Positions 1 to 7,114 of a stretch of DNA of 64,000 bases are shown here, piece after piece (position 1 is the first letter of the stretch; each line of letters opens with the position of its first letter). The notes beneath the pieces are model-generated. The model did no database searches. It was not told the origin of the DNA and saw only the letters and a list, made by a program, of their open reading frames with translations. This DNA is from Alphaproteobacteria bacterium (GTDB lineage: Bacteria > Pseudomonadota > Alphaproteobacteria > Rhizobiales > CAJQND01): the NCBI GenBank assembly GCA_024227565.1, contig JAAEUE010000333.1, positions 10,893 through 74,892 on the forward strand, given 5' to 3'. Made by a program: the position numbers and the translations under genes.

Positions 1-345
1 GGCCGGTTGTTTGAAATAGCCCCCGAAGTGGAACCCCTGTTTGCTGGTTCGAACATGGCCGAACAGAAAAGCAAGTTACTGACGGCTCTCAATCTGGCGG
101 TTCAAAATGCTCACAATACGGGCGTGTTGGTTCCGCTGTTGGAAGATCTCGGGCGCCGGCATATGGAGTACGGCGTTAAGGACGAGCACTATGATGCCGT
201 TGGTGCTGCCCTAATCTGGACCTTGGAAAAGGGTTTGGGCGCAGAGTTCACCGAAGAAGCCTGCGCCTCTTGGACAGCCGTTTACGGTCTTGTTTCTGAG
301 ACCATGAAACGTGCCGCAAACGAGGCGGTGTCCAATGCCGCCTGA
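1..345 (+). CDS. Single-domain globin (flavohaemoglobin-type globin domain), 5'-truncated by the window edge
   Basis: Motifs LFEIAPEVEPLF, LGRRHMEYGV (proximal His), HYDAVGAALIWTL and WTAVYG. The frame is open to base 1, so the true start lies upstream. Confidence 0.85.
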   Translation, partial: GRLFEIAPEVEPLFAGSNMAEQKSKLLTALNLAVQNAHNTGVLVPLLEDLGRRHMEYGVKDEHYDAVGAALIWTLEKGLGAEFTEEACASWTAVYGLVSETMKRAANEAVSNAA

Positions 346-383
346 GCGCGTCCACATTGGACGCATCAATCCTGCAAGCCGAT

Positions 384-412
384 ATGCCGCAGGCATCAGC
401 CTGCGGCATTTG
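384..412 (+). terminator. Possible intrinsic terminator hairpin after the globin gene
   Basis: Perfect 10-bp stem ATGCCGCAGG/CCTGCGGCAT with a 6-nt loop and only a short T tail. A smaller hairpin GCGTCCA-CAT-TGGACGC lies at 348-364. Confidence 0.4.
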
Positions 413-538
413 CCGTAGAACAGGAGGTGAAGAGGGGCGCGCAACTTCCCGGGATCTGGGCAAGCCTTGAAATCCGGCCTGCATTGGCAGAGATTGGCCG
501 CCCATTGAGACAAGATAAAAAGAGCCAGCGGAGACCTT

Positions 539-1285
539 ATGCGAGCAGCGCTAATCACAGGAGCCGGCAAAAGAATCGGCGCCGAAATGGCCAAACACCT
601 CATCGGGGAAGGCTGGTCGGTTGGCATCCACTACAACACGTCAGAAGGCGAGGCCAAGCAGATCGCCGCGCTGGCGGCGGAAAAGGGCGTTGAAGCAAAA
701 ATCTATGGCTATGATCTGTCCGAGCCTGATGCACCTGAAGGCCTGATCGATGCATTTGTTGCCGATTTCCCGGGCGCCTATCTTCTGATCAACAGCGCTG
801 CGATCTTCGAGCGCGACAGCATCAAGAGCTTCTCCAAGGAGATGTTCTATGACCACATTCACATCAACACCCTGGTGCCGACGCTGTTGATCCAGAGGTT
901 TGCCGAAAAGCAGACCGACGATATCTGCGTCATCAACATGCTGGACCAGAAGGTGCAGAACGTGACGCCGGACTACTTCTCCTACACCGTGAGCAAGCTG
1001 GCCCTGCATAACATCACCCACATGACCGCCATGGCGCTCTGGCCTCATTGCCGGGTCAACGGCATCGCGCCCGGCCTGACCCTGCGCAGCGGCGATCAGA
1101 CCGAAGAGGAATTTGAACGGGCCCACCAACGCACGCCCTTAGGTGTGGGACCAACGGTTGAGGACATTTGCCAGACCGTGTCCCTGGTGGCGAATACCAC
1201 TTCCATGACCAACCAGATCATCGTTCTGGACGGCGGACGGCATATGCTGACCAAGTTCCCGTTCGAAGACCTGCCCGTCGAGTAG
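539..1285 (+). CDS. Short-chain dehydrogenase, pteridine reductase (FolM/PTR1)-like
   Basis: TGAGKRIG Rossmann motif with the PTR-type Arg, HYNTS, YTVSK (YxxxK) and VNGIAPG. Directly upstream of folB. Confidence 0.8.
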   Translation: MRAALITGAGKRIGAEMAKHLIGEGWSVGIHYNTSEGEAKQIAALAAEKGVEAKIYGYDLSEPDAPEGLIDAFVADFPGAYLLINSAAIFERDSIKSFSKEMFYDHIHINTLVPTLLIQRFAEKQTDDICVINMLDQKVQNVTPDYFSYTVSKLALHNITHMTAMALWPHCRVNGIAPGLTLRSGDQTEEEFERAHQRTPLGVGPTVEDICQTVSLVANTTSMTNQIIVLDGGRHMLTKFPFEDLPVE

Positions 1286-1289
1286 GCCC

Positions 1290-1670
1290 ATGCCGGCAAC
1301 ACCATCTCTAGGCGGCGACTATTGCGTGTTCGTGCGCAACCTGACGCTTCATCTGCCCATCGGCATTCTGGATCAGGAGCGCGGCCAAACCCAGCCGGTG
1401 ATCGTGAATGTCGAGATGTACGTGCAGGACCCCGGCACCTTCTCCAGCGAAAATATCGCTGACTATGTCTCGTATGCCGATGTGTACGACGCCCTCAAAA
1501 AGTTGGAGCGAGAGGAAAAGCACATTGAACTGGTGGAGAACCTGGCAGAAACCGTGGCGGCAATTGCCCTCAGCCAGAAGGGCGTTCGCCGGGCGGTTGT
1601 GACCATCGAAAAGCCCGAGATCATCGCCGCAGCCGAAAGCGTCGGCGTGACGATCGAGCGCTCCAACTAG
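1290..1670 (+). CDS. folB: Dihydroneopterin aldolase (FolB/FolX family)
   Basis: IGILDQER..QPVIVNV, SYADV, LVENLAE and VTIEKP match FolB conserved Glu/Tyr/Glu/Lys motifs. Confidence 0.8.
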   Translation: MPATPSLGGDYCVFVRNLTLHLPIGILDQERGQTQPVIVNVEMYVQDPGTFSSENIADYVSYADVYDALKKLEREEKHIELVENLAETVAAIALSQKGVRRAVVTIEKPEIIAAAESVGVTIERSN

Positions 1671-1685
1671 CGCGGCCGCAGCGTC

Positions 1686-2723
1686 ATGCGCATCCTCATA
1701 CTGGCCTCAGCCGTTGGCCGCTTTGGCGACGGTGCAACGGGCGGGGTGTCACGCTATGCAGAAGCGATGGTCGGGGCGCTAAGTGGGGCAGGGCACGCTT
1801 GCCAACTGCTTGTGCCTGAGGGGTCGGCCCTGCCGCCCGGGATCGAGGCCTGGCAGGTTCCGGGCACCTTTCAGGCCAGTGCCGCGATCGCAGAACGACA
1901 GGTCCAACCGGTTCCGGCAAACTCTGTCCTGGCGGCGATGCTCGACCGGGCCCACGCTGAGCGCGGCAGTTTCGATCGCATCATCAACCTGAACCACGAT
2001 TATCTGCCGGTGTTTGCCACTGGCCAATTTGACGGCAAACTCTGGCACATCCCCAATCTCACCAGCTCAGACGCCGCCACCGACCAGCTGATTGTGCAAC
2101 GTTTTTCCGAGTGCCCTGAGCGCTTCGCCGCCATCTCGAACTTTCAGGCTGCCAAACTGGGCCTTGCTGGCGCGCCGGTCTTGTGGTTTGGCATGACCGC
2201 GCAGCCAGCTGGCGCTTCGCCAACTGATGATGCACCCATATTCTGGTCGGGCCGGATCACACCGGAGAAAGGCCTGGAGGCCGCTGCCGCCGTCGCCAGC
2301 AAGGCTGGCCGCAAACTGGTCGTTGCCGGGCACATCGAGAACCAGGACTATTATGCCGAGGTCATGAAGGGGTATGGCGGCACCATCGATCATCGTGGGT
2401 TTCTGCGTATCGACGAGCTGCTGAAGCTGTGTTCAGAGGCCTGCGCCACCCTGCAAACCCAATCATGGGAGGAAGCTTTAGGGCTCACCACCATCGAAGC
2501 GCTGGCCGCCGGAACACCGGTCATCGCGTTTGACCGTGGCGCGAACTCGGAGATCATTCAGGACGGTGTGAATGGATTTCTCATCGCCCCTGGAGACATT
2601 GAGGAGGCTGCCAAGGCCATTGCCGCGCTGGATCAGGTGGATCGCCAGCGCATGGCCTCTGATTTTCAACAACGTTTTTCGCTTCAGGCCTTTCAATCCA
2701 GGTTACTTAAGTGGTTGAACTAG
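1686..2723 (+). CDS. GT4 glycosyltransferase, UDP-glucose:tetrahydrobiopterin glucosyltransferase-like
   Basis: GT-B motifs GRITPEKG and WEEALGLTTIEALAAGTPVIA. The N-terminus (VGRFGDGATGGV, VPGTFQASA, SVLAAMLDRAH, HDYLP) resembles, from recall, cyanobacterial pteridine glucosyltransferases. Confidence 0.75.
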   Translation: MRILILASAVGRFGDGATGGVSRYAEAMVGALSGAGHACQLLVPEGSALPPGIEAWQVPGTFQASAAIAERQVQPVPANSVLAAMLDRAHAERGSFDRIINLNHDYLPVFATGQFDGKLWHIPNLTSSDAATDQLIVQRFSECPERFAAISNFQAAKLGLAGAPVLWFGMTAQPAGASPTDDAPIFWSGRITPEKGLEAAAAVASKAGRKLVVAGHIENQDYYAEVMKGYGGTIDHRGFLRIDELLKLCSEACATLQTQSWEEALGLTTIEALAAGTPVIAFDRGANSEIIQDGVNGFLIAPGDIEEAAKAIAALDQVDRQRMASDFQQRFSLQAFQSRLLKWLN

Positions 2724-2763
2724 GCGCTCGCGCTGAACCCACAACACGTTAGGAACAAGCCAT

Positions 2764-3126
2764 ATGACCGCCAAGGCCCGCCGGGACCGTTCGATCAACT
2801 ATATCGAGTTCAACGTTGAAGACATTGCACGGTCAAAGCGCTTCTACGGGGAGGCGTTTGGCTGGACGTTCACTGACTTTGGGCCAGACTATTGCGAGTT
2901 CAACGATGGCGAGATGACAGGCGGTTTCGACCAGACCGAACCGGTGCGCAGCGGCGGTCCGCTTGTGGTGCTGTATGGTGATGATCTGGAAGAACTGCAG
3001 CGGGCCATTAAGGCCGCGGGCGGTGAGATTTTGAAGCCGATCTTTGACTTTCCAGGCGGCAAGCGCTTCCATTTTGCCGATCCGGACGGCTATGAGCTTG
3101 CGGTCTGGACAGCCGCCGAAGGCTGA
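2764..3126 (+). CDS. VOC/glyoxalase family protein
   Basis: INYIEF..DIARSKRFYGEAFGW and RFHFADPDGYELAVW. Confidence 0.85.
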   Translation: MTAKARRDRSINYIEFNVEDIARSKRFYGEAFGWTFTDFGPDYCEFNDGEMTGGFDQTEPVRSGGPLVVLYGDDLEELQRAIKAAGGEILKPIFDFPGGKRFHFADPDGYELAVWTAAEG

Positions 3127-3143
3127 GAGAGGAAACAGCCGAG

Positions 3144-3860
3144 ATGAACAACCGCAAGAAGACCTACCACGGCGTGACGCTGGGCATCTTGATGGTCGAC
3201 AGCACCTTCACCCGCTTTGTGGGCGACATCGGCAATGCGCAAACCTGGCCGTTCCCGGTGCAATACAAGATCGTGCGCGGCGCCTCGCCGGCTGAGATGA
3301 TCTCGCTGGAAGCCTCAGACGTGCTCCAGCCGTTCAAGGATGCGGCCGACGAGCTGATCGGCGACGGCGTTGATGGCATCACCACAACCTGCGGCTTTCT
3401 CGCGCTCTACCAGCAGGCGCTGGCAGAGCACTGCCCGGTTCCGGTGTGCACCAGTGCCTTGCTGCAGGTACCCCTGGTGGAACGGCTCATTCCGGGCAAC
3501 CAGCGGGTTGGGGTGTTGACCTATTCGGCCGAAGCCCTGAACGCCGTCCACCTGGAAGCTGCCGGCGTGGCGGCCGACACGCCGGTGGTTGGGATACCCC
3601 GGGACAGTGAGTTTTTCCGCTGGATCATCGAAGGCGACGACCAGGTTCCCATCGAGGCCATCCGCGATGACGCACTGGCCGCAGCACGGCGCCTGGTTGC
3701 CGAGAACCCCGAGGTGGGGGCCATCGTTTCAGAATGCACCAATCTCACGCCATTCGCCGCTGACATCCGCAAGGAAACCGGCTTGCCGGTGTTTGACATG
3801 GTGTCCATGGTGACCTGGTTCCAAATGGGCTTGAAACCAAGGACCTACGTCCAGGACTAG
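3144..3860 (+). CDS. Aspartate/glutamate/hydantoin racemase family protein
   Basis: GDIGNA.TWPFPV plus the two-cysteine motifs TTTCGF and SECTNL. Confidence 0.8.
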   Translation: MNNRKKTYHGVTLGILMVDSTFTRFVGDIGNAQTWPFPVQYKIVRGASPAEMISLEASDVLQPFKDAADELIGDGVDGITTTCGFLALYQQALAEHCPVPVCTSALLQVPLVERLIPGNQRVGVLTYSAEALNAVHLEAAGVAADTPVVGIPRDSEFFRWIIEGDDQVPIEAIRDDALAAARRLVAENPEVGAIVSECTNLTPFAADIRKETGLPVFDMVSMVTWFQMGLKPRTYVQD

Positions 3861-3976
3861 GCGCCGGGACTTCTGTAATGGTGCTGATCAACAATTCACT
3901 GATTGTGACAAATACCACAATGCAGATTGGTTGACTTGTGCTCCTATGATCCCCAGGGCATCGGGTGATCGGGAGG

Positions 3977-4393
3977 ATGGAAACGTTGATCACCTTTGCG
4001 TGCAAAGTTCGAGATCTGCCGGGTTGGCGCAATGTGACCGGTGCGGTCCCAGTTTGGGGAACTTTGCTTCACCATGAAGATGTACAGAACTTCTGCCAGG
4101 GGGTCGCGCGCGCCCTGGAACATGAGCTCGCCTACGGCATGAATGTGGAAATTAGCCCGGCTGACAAAGCGGGCAAGGCGGCGATGACCGTCACCGGCTG
4201 GTGGACCGAAAGCGACGCCCATCTTGGCATCAGCAGCATCGAAACGGTCAAGCTGGGATTTGTTCCTGCACCAGAAGCAGAACGTCTCCGCGCGTCCGGC
4301 GAAACCCAGTTGAAGGCTCAATTGCTGTCTGTGTGCTGCCCGTTTGGCGAAGATGAGGTTGATATCGTTTTTCAGATTTTCGTACCGATCTAA
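3977..4393 (+). CDS. Hypothetical protein
   Basis: GGAGG RBS before ATG 3977. The ORF fills the gap between the racemase and the convergent kinase. No motif recognised. Confidence 0.55.
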   Translation: METLITFACKVRDLPGWRNVTGAVPVWGTLLHHEDVQNFCQGVARALEHELAYGMNVEISPADKAGKAAMTVTGWWTESDAHLGISSIETVKLGFVPAPEAERLRASGETQLKAQLLSVCCPFGEDEVDIVFQIFVPI

Positions 4394-4414
4394 CAACGGC
4401 CGGGAGGCGCACTC

Positions 4415-7114
4415 CTACGTTCTCAGCACCCGCTTCACCAAATTCTGCAGATCAGTGCGCGTGAACGGCTTGTCGATCGTCGCCGCGCCGCTTTCCTGGA
4501 GAAACCTGCTCGCGGCCGGGCTCAGGGTGTCACCGGTGATGAAGCCAAACTTATTCTCAATGCCCGGCCAACGCCGGGACGCTTCGGCAAATAGGCCCGG
4601 ACCGTCCAGGACCGGCATCCTGATGTCACTCAAGATGAAGTCAAACGGCTCGGTCTCTATCGCATCCAGCGCGCTGGCCCCATTTTCAGCTACCTCGCAG
4701 GAATATCCCAACGCGGTGAGATGGTCAGCCACCGTCTCGCCAACATCAACCTCGTCGTCCACCACAAGCACGCGCATGCGCCCGTTACCCTCGCCGTTGC
4801 CGGCGGCCGCAGCTTTCGGTTTCGGCGGTTCGGATGCCGGTACCTCGCCCTCGTAGGCCGGCAGACGAAGTTCGAACGTTGCGCCTTGTCCCTTCGTGGC
4901 GGGGCCCAGGGTCAGGCTGCCGCCGTGGGCCGTTACGATGTTGTGGGCGATGGGAAGCCCGATGCCGGTGCCTGAGCCTTCAGATTTTGTGGTGAAGAAG
5001 GGCTCGAATATTCGGGTGCGAATGGCATCGGGAATGCCAGGCCCGTTGTCCGACACCACATAAACGGCTTCCTGCCCGCCCGGCGCGGGCCGCAGGGTCA
5101 GATGCATCTTTCGGGGTTGGGGCCGCTCCAGCAACGCTTGCTGGGCGTTGATCATCAGGTTGGCAAGCACCTGGCCGATCTGTCCTGGGTCTCCGTAGAG
5201 CGCGGGCAGACCATCGGCAAAATCCTGCGTCACCTCAATGCCGCTGGTTTTCAGGCCATACTCTGTGGTCTTCAGCGCTTCAAAGGCCGGCTCGGTGGCG
5301 TCAAACGGGCTGCGTTCAGGCGGCTGTTGGCGCACAGTCGCAAGGAAGGTGCGCACAATGCCGGCGCTTCTGTCGGCAGCCGATTTGATGCGGCCCACCC
5401 GTTTGAGGATAGCCTCATCGGACACCAGTTCTGCCAGAATATCGGCCTGGCCAATCACCACCGATAGAGGGTTGTTGAGTTCATGGGACACGTTGGCCAA
5501 CAGCGAGCCCAGCGCGCTCATCTTTTCAGCCTGGGCCATGGCTTCACGCTGGCGGTCCACTTCTGCCTCGGCAACTTCCTTGGCCGCCACCAGGGCAACT
5601 TCCTCATCCTTGCGCTGGGTAATGTCGTGCGAGATCGTCAGAATGCCCCTAACCGTGCCGCCCACATCCAAAAGAGGCACCTTGGTGGTGTACCAGGTGG
5701 ACGGATTGCCGTGCTGGTCAAGGCTGGTATCTTCGAAGTTCAGCATGGAGGCCCCGGTGTCCAGCACCTGGCGGTCGCGCTCCATGGTGAGCTCTGCATA
5801 GTCTTCCTCGGCCACGTCCGACACCAGCTTGCCTCTAAGCTCGCCGGCAGAGAGGCCGTAAAACGCCGCCTGGGCCGGGTTGCACAACAAGAACCGGCCC
5901 TTGGCATCCTTCACGTTGATGATGGCGGGCGTGGAATCGATCACCGTCTGCAAAGTCGCTTCACTCTCGCGCAACGCCAACTCGGCTGCCTTGCGTTTGG
6001 TGATGTCTGTTTGAATGGACACGGTTCCGCCGTTTGACGTCCGGCGATCTCGGATCTGCAGCCAACGACCCTCTCCCAGCTGGATCTGCAGCGAGCCGCC
6101 GTCAGCATCGCGCTGCTCCACCCGGCGCGCAATGTGGCTGTCTCCGGTGGCATCGGCGATGATGCCCTTTTCCAGATCGAACCCGATGAGATCCTCAAAC
6201 AGGGTGCCCGGCGCCGCCTCTTCCTCGCTGTAGCGGTAGAACTCCCGGAACCGCCGGTTGCAGAGCACGAGGCGGTTGTTTTTATCGTAAATCACGATGC
6301 CTTCCGACATGTTGTCGAGAGCGTCCATGAGCAGGGCATCTGCGGTATCCGCAGCGTCCTTGGCCCGCTGCAGCTCATCGCCGGCGCGCTTGCGGTCTGT
6401 GATGTCGGTGCCGATCAAGCCAATGGCCACAGATCCATCGGGCGGCAGGTGAATGGGAAACTTGATCTCCATGAAGATGCGGTTGCCGTCAACCGTGGAG
6501 ACAACCTGTTCGCGCTCCACCACTGCGCCGGCTTCCACAACCCGTTGGTCGTGCACATGCAAGGGGTCGGCAATCTCCTGGTCGAACAGGTCATACACCG
6601 TCCGGCCGATAATCTGGTCCGGCGTCAAGCCGTGCAGTTCCTGGAACATGCGGTTGGCGAAGATGTAGCGCCCGTCCAGATCTTTCAGGCAGATGAGGGC
6701 TGGTGAGTTTTGGGCCATTCCCTCAAAGCGTGCCCTGTTCTCCCGCAGGGATTTTTCGGTGGCCACCCGCTCGGAAATGTCTCGCCCGTAAATGTTGATC
6801 TGCTCACCGCCGCCAGCCAGATGCATCTCAAAATGATAGATCCGCTCGCCCACGGTCATGTTGGCTTCTGGCGGTCCATCGCCATCGGCAAAGGTCTTCA
6901 CTGCAACTTGCAAGGCCGCGCTCTTGATCTTTTTTCGATTTTTTGTGAGCAGGCCGCTCACCGCGCCGGCAGCCGGATTTGCATAGATCAGCTTGGCTGA
7001 CGGTTCTGCAATCATCACCGGATTTGGGTTTTCTTCAGGCAGCAGGGCAAGGCGCGCAAGGTGGGCTGCTTTCGCGCCGGCCTCTTCCCCGTCAATGTTG
7101 TTGTCCTCGCTCAT
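4415..7114 (-). CDS. Cytoplasmic hybrid sensor histidine kinase (multi-PAS-HisKA-HATPase-REC)
   Basis: Several PAS/PAC repeats (DITDRK, DITKRK, DITQRK), H-box SHELNNPL, DNGPGI, FFTTK, GTGIGL and a C-terminal receiver (VVDDE, DIRMP, KP). No transmembrane segment seen. Confidence 0.92.
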   Translation of the reverse strand: MSEDNNIDGEEAGAKAAHLARLALLPEENPNPVMIAEPSAKLIYANPAAGAVSGLLTKNRKKIKSAALQVAVKTFADGDGPPEANMTVGERIYHFEMHLAGGGEQINIYGRDISERVATEKSLRENRARFEGMAQNSPALICLKDLDGRYIFANRMFQELHGLTPDQIIGRTVYDLFDQEIADPLHVHDQRVVEAGAVVEREQVVSTVDGNRIFMEIKFPIHLPPDGSVAIGLIGTDITDRKRAGDELQRAKDAADTADALLMDALDNMSEGIVIYDKNNRLVLCNRRFREFYRYSEEEAAPGTLFEDLIGFDLEKGIIADATGDSHIARRVEQRDADGGSLQIQLGEGRWLQIRDRRTSNGGTVSIQTDITKRKAAELALRESEATLQTVIDSTPAIINVKDAKGRFLLCNPAQAAFYGLSAGELRGKLVSDVAEEDYAELTMERDRQVLDTGASMLNFEDTSLDQHGNPSTWYTTKVPLLDVGGTVRGILTISHDITQRKDEEVALVAAKEVAEAEVDRQREAMAQAEKMSALGSLLANVSHELNNPLSVVIGQADILAELVSDEAILKRVGRIKSAADRSAGIVRTFLATVRQQPPERSPFDATEPAFEALKTTEYGLKTSGIEVTQDFADGLPALYGDPGQIGQVLANLMINAQQALLERPQPRKMHLTLRPAPGGQEAVYVVSDNGPGIPDAIRTRIFEPFFTTKSEGSGTGIGLPIAHNIVTAHGGSLTLGPATKGQGATFELRLPAYEGEVPASEPPKPKAAAAGNGEGNGRMRVLVVDDEVDVGETVADHLTALGYSCEVAENGASALDAIETEPFDFILSDIRMPVLDGPGLFAEASRRWPGIENKFGFITGDTLSPAASRFLQESGAATIDKPFTRTDLQNLVKRVLRT

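Follow-up and report, generated by a model that had tools for sequence, protein, structure and literature searches.

Pterin glycosides have been reported from cyanobacteria, Chlorobium and Sulfolobus, and papers on them describe their function as unsettled (PMC5683033, PMC3546692). Pteridine glycosyltransferases (PGTs) act on reduced pteridines, and residues 218 and 258 of the Arthrospira PGTs bear on the donor sugar (PMC4133829). Members with solved structures include BGluT, the UDP-glucose:tetrahydrobiopterin alpha-glucosyltransferase of Synechococcus sp. PCC 7942 (5ZE7, the BH2 complex 5ZER and the UDP complex 5ZES), and PsBGluT of Pseudanabaena (9V0L, with UDP). A BGluT homologue of Synechocystis sp. 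PCC 6803, PgtA (slr1166), glycosylates 6-hydroxymethylpterin, an aglycone derived from the product of FolB, and the resulting cyanopterin is a 6-hydroxymethylpterin glycoside present as the tetrahydro form (PMC3546692). A PGT of Chlorobium tepidum is described in a crystallisation paper (PMC5683033). Reduced pterins of another kind are the subject of the PruA/FolM tetrahydromonapterin branch, represented by PruA of Agrobacterium tumefaciens and by FolX-FolM of Escherichia coli. Here, we analyze a 64,000-nucleotide stretch of a Rhizobiales genome (contig JAAEUE010000333.1; henceforth the window), in which a pteridine reductase that is a short-chain dehydrogenase/reductase (SDR), the dihydroneopterin aldolase FolB and a BGluT-like glycosyltransferase (GT) are encoded side by side. 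These three genes probably form a pterin-glycoside module that is built on the housekeeping pterin branch point and uses a reduced pterin as acceptor.

The window GT resembles BGluT in its full-length homology and GT-B fold, and both share the invariant residues of the N-terminal domain as well as the GRxxPEKG and EX7E motifs. Unlike BGluT, however, it belongs to an alphaproteobacterial sister branch, its host is not a phototroph and has no detected 6-pyruvoyltetrahydropterin synthase (PTPS), and its gene is clustered with those for FolB and a reductase. For such a combination of FolB, reductase and PGT, the PgtA/cyanopterin pathway is the best chemical precedent, although cyanopterin bears a disaccharide (4-O-methylglucuronyl-galactoside) and the window cluster contains neither a second GT nor a methyltransferase. 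With the PruA/FolM branch, the window reductase shares motifs and its best structural matches. In contrast to the FolX-FolM system, no second FolB-domain gene of the FolX type was found in G000, the genome that contains the window. The same operon was also considered for A. tumefaciens and rejected, since pruA lies there beside uvrC, and not beside folB or a GT gene (PMC4488946).

Family membership and phylogeny of the glycosyltransferase

Pfam searches recognized only the C-terminal GT4 domain of the window GT (Glycos_transf_1, PF00534; 82.1 bits, residues 177-315). The generic N-terminal GT4 families PF13439 and PF13579 were not detected in it, whereas they were detected in generic GT4 matches. 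Among PDB sequences, the best matches were BGluT (5ZE7/5ZER; E = 1.4e-54, 188.7 bits, residues 2-344, about 35% identity) and the Pseudanabaena enzyme (9V0L; E = 1.5e-45). The next match, at 72.8 bits and confined to C-terminal residues 178-337, was tll1591 (TeGSS), the glucosylsucrose synthase of Thermosynechococcus (7FG9, 7FGA and 8X3Q). This enzyme is the nearest solved non-pterin relative and scores 103 bits to a cyanobacterial PGT. When the N-terminal 170 residues of the window GT were searched alone, 5ZE7 (E = 3e-21) and 9V0L (E = 6.5e-13) were recovered, all other PDB chains having E values of at least 0.76. The first-pass annotation of this DNA, made from its letters without database searches, had noted a likeness of the N-terminal domain to the Synechococcus tetrahydrobiopterin (BH4) glucosyltransferase, which these searches confirm.

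The same picture emerges from the predicted fold. An AlphaFold2 model of the GT, based on a 30-row alignment, has a mean pLDDT of 92.8, and the top seven Foldseek matches to it are BGluT chains (TM 0.85-0.91), followed by tll1591 (0.77-0.79) and AviGT4 (0.71-0.75). The C-terminal motifs GRITPEKG (189-196) and EX7E (263-271), which are expected to serve in catalysis and in the binding of the nucleotide sugar, are intact, with R190, K195, E263 and E271 invariant in 30 family members. Likewise, G14, G19, G20, G60, D105, L107 and H121 of the N-terminal domain are invariant in these members. Identity to the cyanobacterial proteins amounts to 22-36% in the N-terminal domain, not far from the 34-42% seen in the C-terminal one. 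By its sequence and modelled fold, the window GT is a member of the PGT family. Because the host lacks a detectable PTPS, we file it in this wider family and not as a BH4 glucosyltransferase.

A protein search returned 16 close orthologues of the GT (56-91% identity), then a group at 28-38% identity and then generic GT4s. The orthologues are publicly named just 'glycosyltransferase', while one member of the 28-38% group carries the JGI name 'UDP-glucose:tetrahydrobiopterin glucosyltransferase'. A scan of named genomes yielded 544 relatives, of which the best 80, at 29-38% identity, comprised 67 cyanobacterial sequences, one alphaproteobacterial metagenome-assembled genome, five Ilumatobacter-type actinobacteria, two Bryobacteraceae, two Ktedonobacter-type bacteria and three others. 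For tree construction, a quick IQ-TREE search was carried out on 106 rows, including 10 generic GT4 outgroups picked from 98 weaker matches. The short rows L072 and L074, the 55-residue fragment L011 and the weak GT4 matches L007-L010 and L012 were omitted, as were L001, L013, L096 and L099-L102, which duplicate genomes already included; slr1166 (PgtA) was not among the rows.

In this tree, the window GT falls inside a 93-row PGT clade (SH-aLRT 100, stem length 1.37), apart from the 10 generic GT4 outgroups. The phylogeny called for in the first-pass annotation therefore places it with the PGTs, and not with the GT4s of lipopolysaccharide (LPS) or exopolysaccharide (EPS) synthesis. Within the clade, a 16-row branch (SH-aLRT 97) unites the window GT with every alphaproteobacterial sequence, and is sister (82) to a 77-row branch made up of Bryobacteraceae, Cyanobacteria and the Ilumatobacter group, the last of which nests among the cyanobacteria. 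A cyanobacterial member of the 77-row branch, L032, scores 502 bits to 5ZE7, and thus the characterized enzyme belongs to this sister branch. The placement indicates that the alphaproteobacterial GTs form a separate subfamily of long standing and were not recently acquired from cyanobacteria.

Linkage of the glycosyltransferase to reductase and FolB

Among 40 relatives, the five remaining genomes of the genus all carry a GT of the window type, as does G031, which represents another family of the order; no strong match was found in three genomes of the sister genus. In an even sample of 400 genomes of the class, four carry this GT type, namely all three of family f47 and one of family f216. No full-length match was found in a phylum sample of 400 genomes. 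The sole match there at E ≤ 1e-30, in G610, was not counted, being partial (residues 82-339, 120 bits) and lying in a 2.5-kb locus without SDR or FolB.

Wherever the alphaproteobacterial GT was found, it adjoins FolB. This holds for 11 of 11 genomes from four families (G000-G005, G031, G053, which is L015, G236, G367 and G223), and the SDR was also seen in 10 of them (the G005 contig begins inside FolB). Three gene orders are represented: the genus and G031 have SDR-FolB-GT, family f47 has GT-SDR-FolB, and in f216 a convergent SDR accompanies GT-FolB. The synteny survey suggested in the first-pass annotation has thus revealed a linkage between GT and folB that is kept across families and rearrangements. 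Window-type SDR and FolB neighbours were seen in only one of the 80 PGT-type loci that rank best among the 544 named-genome relatives, and this locus, L015, is the alphaproteobacterial one. A metagenome scan with the alphaproteobacterial GT alignment, in which one of the two patterns was generic, serves as a negative control only: its 80 top-ranking loci proved to be ordinary GT4s (highest score 110 bits, none full-length above 150 bits), added no members to the family, and in none of them was FolB a neighbour.

The SDR-FolB pair itself is far more widespread. Out of 201 class genomes, 142 contain FolB, 127 an SDR orthologue (E ≤ 1e-30) and 117 both; the two genes lie within 2 kb of each other in at least 85 of these 117, and within 300 bp in 82. 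Set beside the four in 400 class genomes with the GT, these counts agree with the initial impression that the pair is common and the GT the unusual part. Moreover, SDR identity to the window protein reaches 44% in genomes without the GT, versus 38-39% for the cluster SDRs of f47. This pattern suggests that the three genes did not travel as a block, and that the GT instead became associated with resident SDR-FolB pairs or remained beside them while the gene order changed.

The reductase was identified by Pfam as adh_short_C2 (98.6 bits). The NCBIfam models rank PRK09134 first (250.8 bits, cut-off 281), followed by the pteridine reductase PRK09135 (139.5, cut-off 288) and FolM PRK06483 (96, cut-off 249). 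As none of these equivalog cut-offs is passed, the protein is called PruA/FolM-like here and is not assigned to any of the three equivalog families. Its best PDB matches are 5bt9 and 5tgd (132-133 bits), the latter named 'FolM alternative dihydrofolate reductase', followed by the trypanosomatid enzymes PTR1/PTR2 at 66-68 bits. The motif TGX3RXG is present as TGAGKRIG (residues 7-14) and YX3K as YTVSK (149-153). According to a 2026 review (PMC13259868), TGX3RXG, in which Arg replaces the SDR Gly, and YX3K together constitute the pteridine-reductase signature, and the dihydro forms of biopterin, neopterin and monapterin are substrates of PruA, whereas dihydrofolate is not. The window reductase would not be needed as a dihydrofolate reductase, because canonical FolA is present in six of six genomes of the genus.

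FolB matches PF02152 with 85.4 bits (cut-off 31.8) and the FolB-domain model TIGR00526 with 74.3 (cut-off 45.05), and narrowly misses the stricter folB model TIGR00525 (68.4 versus 72.15); the FolX model scores 53.2 versus a cut-off of 152. Its best PDB match is the E. coli-type dihydroneopterin aldolase 2o90 (47.3 bits), with the epimerase FolX (1b9l) at 33.9 bits. Residues E30, Y62, E83 and K108 align with those of the E. coli aldolase that we assume to be catalytic. A single PF02152 match per genome was found in 10 genomes (G000, G002-G005, G031, G053, G236, G367 and G223), including the closed genome G003 (completeness 100%), G004 (99%) and G000 (86.5%). HPPK was found in five of five genomes and GTP cyclohydrolase I (FolE) is present as well, both encoded elsewhere than in the cluster. 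Judged by this gene inventory, the sole copy of FolB, with the other folate-pathway genes located elsewhere, is a housekeeping enzyme of folate synthesis and not a dedicated paralogue.

A comparable arrangement was observed in a second phylum. Two Ktedonobacter-type loci (L093:2856-5128 and L087:2824-5098) contain a co-oriented SDR-PTPS-GT cluster. Like the window, they combine adjacent genes for an SDR, for a pterin enzyme of the T-fold type and for a BGluT-like GT, but with PTPS in the place of FolB. Additionally, the Ktedonobacter GTs are not part of the 93-row PGT clade, and the generic GT4 N-terminal domain PF13439 can still be recognized in them. Their match to BGluT 5ZE7 is full-length (168 bits), with tll1591 at 178 bits. 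These are likely biopterin-glycoside clusters of Chloroflexota, and through them the family's tie to an SDR and a pterin enzyme of the T-fold type extends to that phylum.

Predicted pathway, acceptor and alternative explanations

The gene content suggests a route in which each enzymatic step, the acceptor and the sugar are predictions. GTP cyclohydrolase I, encoded elsewhere, would provide dihydroneopterin triphosphate. After dephosphorylation, FolB would convert dihydroneopterin into 6-hydroxymethyl-7,8-dihydropterin and, as a side activity, could epimerize dihydroneopterin to dihydromonapterin; an NCBIfam model names E. coli FolB a bifunctional aldolase/epimerase. The PruA/FolM-type reductase would then reduce an unconjugated 7,8-dihydropterin to its tetrahydro form, and the GT would move a sugar from a UDP-sugar onto a side-chain hydroxyl of this tetrahydropterin.

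PTPS (PF01242) was not found in nine of 10 GT-bearing genomes. Within the window's genus, it was not found in G000 and G002-G005, the closed genome G003 included; these are five of the six sampled genus genomes, G001 not having been searched. BH4 is thereby excluded as the acceptor in the genus. As to the pterins that remain, we would divide our expectation roughly equally between reduced 6-hydroxymethylpterin, the aglycone of cyanopterin, and reduced neopterin or monapterin. As a separate matter, no gene of the PTPS/QueD family was found in the same five genomes, and besides biopterin the genus may also lack de novo synthesis of queuosine.

Several points weigh against a pterin-glycoside module. 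All characterized enzymes lie in the sister branch and none in the alphaproteobacterial branch. Five positions are fixed differently in the alphaproteobacterial and the sister branch (H104/Y, N124/S or T, Q259/P, A286/G and N287/P; 13 versus 17 rows compared), 104 and 124 being located in the N-terminal domain, so that both domains are affected; such changes may hint at an acceptor or a donor differing from anything known. The acceptor of tll1591, the nearest solved relative, is sucrose rather than a pterin (PMC9909042), and the Ktedonobacter GT matches this enzyme slightly better than BGluT (178 versus 168 bits). There is only one copy of FolB, and many genomes have the SDR-FolB pair but no GT beside it (85 of 117), so the presence of FolB does not in itself point to a dedicated pathway. 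Co-transcription of the three genes is predicted from the gaps of 4 and 15 bp.

The sucrose acceptor of tll1591 lends itself to a different explanation, in which the acceptor of the GT is a small molecule other than a pterin (a sugar, a compatible solute or some further metabolite) and its adjacency to the pterin genes reflects shared regulation or history instead of a shared pathway. The substitutions fixed relative to the BH4 enzymes fit this idea. In addition, the PGT genes of the cyanobacterial, Ilumatobacter-type and Bryobacteraceae loci have no FolB, PTPS or FolE within 4 kb, and thus the linkage is not a general trait of the PGT family. On the other hand, the N-terminal domain of the window GT matches neither tll1591 nor any other non-BGluT GT in the PDB, the match to tll1591 being C-terminal only at 72.8 bits. 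Moreover, its adjacency to the pterin pair persists over three gene orders and four families, whereas a FolB neighbour occurs in none of the 80 generic GT4 loci. We therefore consider a non-pterin acceptor unlikely.

It is also conceivable, at a rather slim chance, that the glycoside is not an end product and that the sugar marks excess reduced pterin to be exported or stored, thereby regulating flux through the FolB branch between folate and unconjugated pterins. The sole FolB copy, which must also supply folate synthesis, would be in keeping with such a function. Bacteria excrete pterins in quantity by routes that the review calls unknown (PMC13259868), and pterin content is reduced in a Synechocystis pgtA mutant (PMC3546692). 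The conserved core, however, contains no transporter, and sequence data alone do not separate an export or storage tag from a pterin glycoside made for its own sake.

That the GT is an ordinary envelope GT4 of LPS, EPS or capsule synthesis lying beside folB by chance is close to refuted: although Pfam and NCBIfam detect only a generic GT4 C-terminal domain, the best NCBIfam models are EPS/adhesin glycosyltransferases, far under their cut-offs (best 51.2 bits versus 400), and the orthologues bear no more specific public name, tree and fold group the protein with the BGluTs, PF13439 and PF13579 are not detected in it, and no polysaccharide genes were found near it.

A pterin-glycoside module thus remains the reading that we prefer. 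The first-pass annotation had taken the operon for a pterin-glycoside pathway; the family of the GT and its linkage speak for this, whereas the notion of a dedicated pathway has to be given up, FolB being the sole housekeeping copy. Regarding the wider proposal, we see an even prospect that non-phototrophic Alphaproteobacteria make an undescribed tetrahydropterin glycoside, of monapterin/neopterin or of 6-hydroxymethylpterin, by means of their own old PGT subfamily attached to the PruA-FolB pair in at least three arrangements, with the sugar giving rise to a distinct redox or signalling molecule, possibly an exported form.

Locus layout, biological role and significance

The features of the cluster region are collected in the table below. 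The three co-oriented open reading frames (ORFs) and the gaps between them, 4 bp from reductase to FolB (1286-1289) and 15 bp from FolB to GT (1671-1685), were read in the sequence exactly as first annotated. GC content is 0.56-0.62 across the region, with no break in composition. A GGAG lies 8 nt 5' of the reductase ATG. An Rfam search over positions 1-4500 gave no match at E ≤ 1, hence no riboswitch of the tetrahydrofolate type was found. Promoter and terminator scans did not exceed shuffle expectation (3 promoter-like sites versus 1.3 expected; 3 terminator-like sites versus 4.1 expected), and the promoter scan found no sigma-70-like or promoter-like site within the spacer upstream of the reductase.

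Table. Features of the cluster region in window coordinates
Feature	Position	Strand	Length	Basis or remark
Single-domain globin	1-345 (full gene L103:10788-11237)	same as reductase	149 aa	PF00042
Upstream intergenic region, globin gene to reductase	346-538	+		presumed promoter region, inferred
PruA/FolM-type pteridine reductase (SDR)	539-1285	+	248 aa	ORF list and Pfam
Dihydroneopterin aldolase FolB	1290-1670	+	126 aa	ORF list and Pfam
GT of the PGT family, GT-B, alphaproteobacterial subfamily	1686-2723	+	345 aa	
VOC/glyoxalase-fold protein	2764-3126	+	120 aa	PF00903, 55.8 bits; possible genus-specific operon extension
Asp/Glu/hydantoin-racemase-like protein, PRK07475	3144-3860	+	238 aa	NF005679, 306.8 bits (cut-off 231); PF01177, 43.4 bits; possible genus-specific extension

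Two more genes of this orientation come next, the VOC protein gene 40 bp after the GT and the gene for the racemase-like protein 17 bp after that. The VOC protein occupies the corresponding position in L002-L005 (73-87% identity) and is absent from the clusters of G031, f47 and f216, while the racemase-like protein is kept in L002-L005 at 81-90% identity. Being genus-wide but not part of the clusters of other families, the two genes may extend the operon and modify its product. A distance of 193 bp separates the end of the upstream globin gene from the reductase. The globin gene is accompanied by a divergent LysR regulator (L103:9774-10670), and it precedes the cluster in L002, L003 and L011 as well. 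Just downstream of the cluster region, an 899-aa ORF on the minus strand (window 4415-7114) has a translation resembling a multi-PAS hybrid histidine kinase.

A role in UV or redox protection or in pterin signalling, as first proposed for the product, found no support in the genomes. The photosynthetic reaction centre domain Photo_RC was absent from all five GT-bearing genomes searched, and a photolyase/cryptochrome domain was present in two of five, both from the window's genus. Unlike in the PruA branch, the pterin-dependent aromatic amino-acid hydroxylase PF00351 was found in none of four genomes, and a PruR-DcpA-like pair was not seen, although no search with the PruR sequence itself was made. 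The sole SUOX-like small protein in G000 (211 aa; G000:C128, L109:1387-2022, minus strand) matches PF00174 weakly (27.7 bits) and adjoins a PNP_UDP_1 phosphorylase and a Bmp-type binding protein, not a GGDEF-EAL gene.

A side observation concerns the Ilumatobacter-type loci L050:1729-5074 and L076:1802-5047, in which the PGT-type gene is divergent from a gene for a PAS-GGDEF-EAL protein and lies beside rplM-rpsI. The position of a PGT-type gene next to that of a cyclic di-GMP enzyme recalls the PruA-DcpA link of Agrobacterium.

In a literature search with most subscription journals outside its reach, we found, among the matches listed, nothing on pterin glycosides in Alphaproteobacteria, on PGTs in Proteobacteria or on this gene arrangement. 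The enzyme family and pterin glycosides as such are already known; what is new is that Alphaproteobacteria have a subfamily of their own, that it is consistently associated with FolB and a reductase of the PruA type, and that non-phototrophs carry it. Modified monapterins are known in Agrobacterium, and a figure legend in the 2026 review allows for an 'unknown sidechain' (PMC13259868). With a PGT branch in heterotrophic Alphaproteobacteria, pterin-glycoside chemistry would reach a new group of organisms and, through the connection to FolB and a reductase of the PruA type in place of PTPS, a new aglycone route. Such a branch would also offer the pterin-signalling field a concrete candidate.

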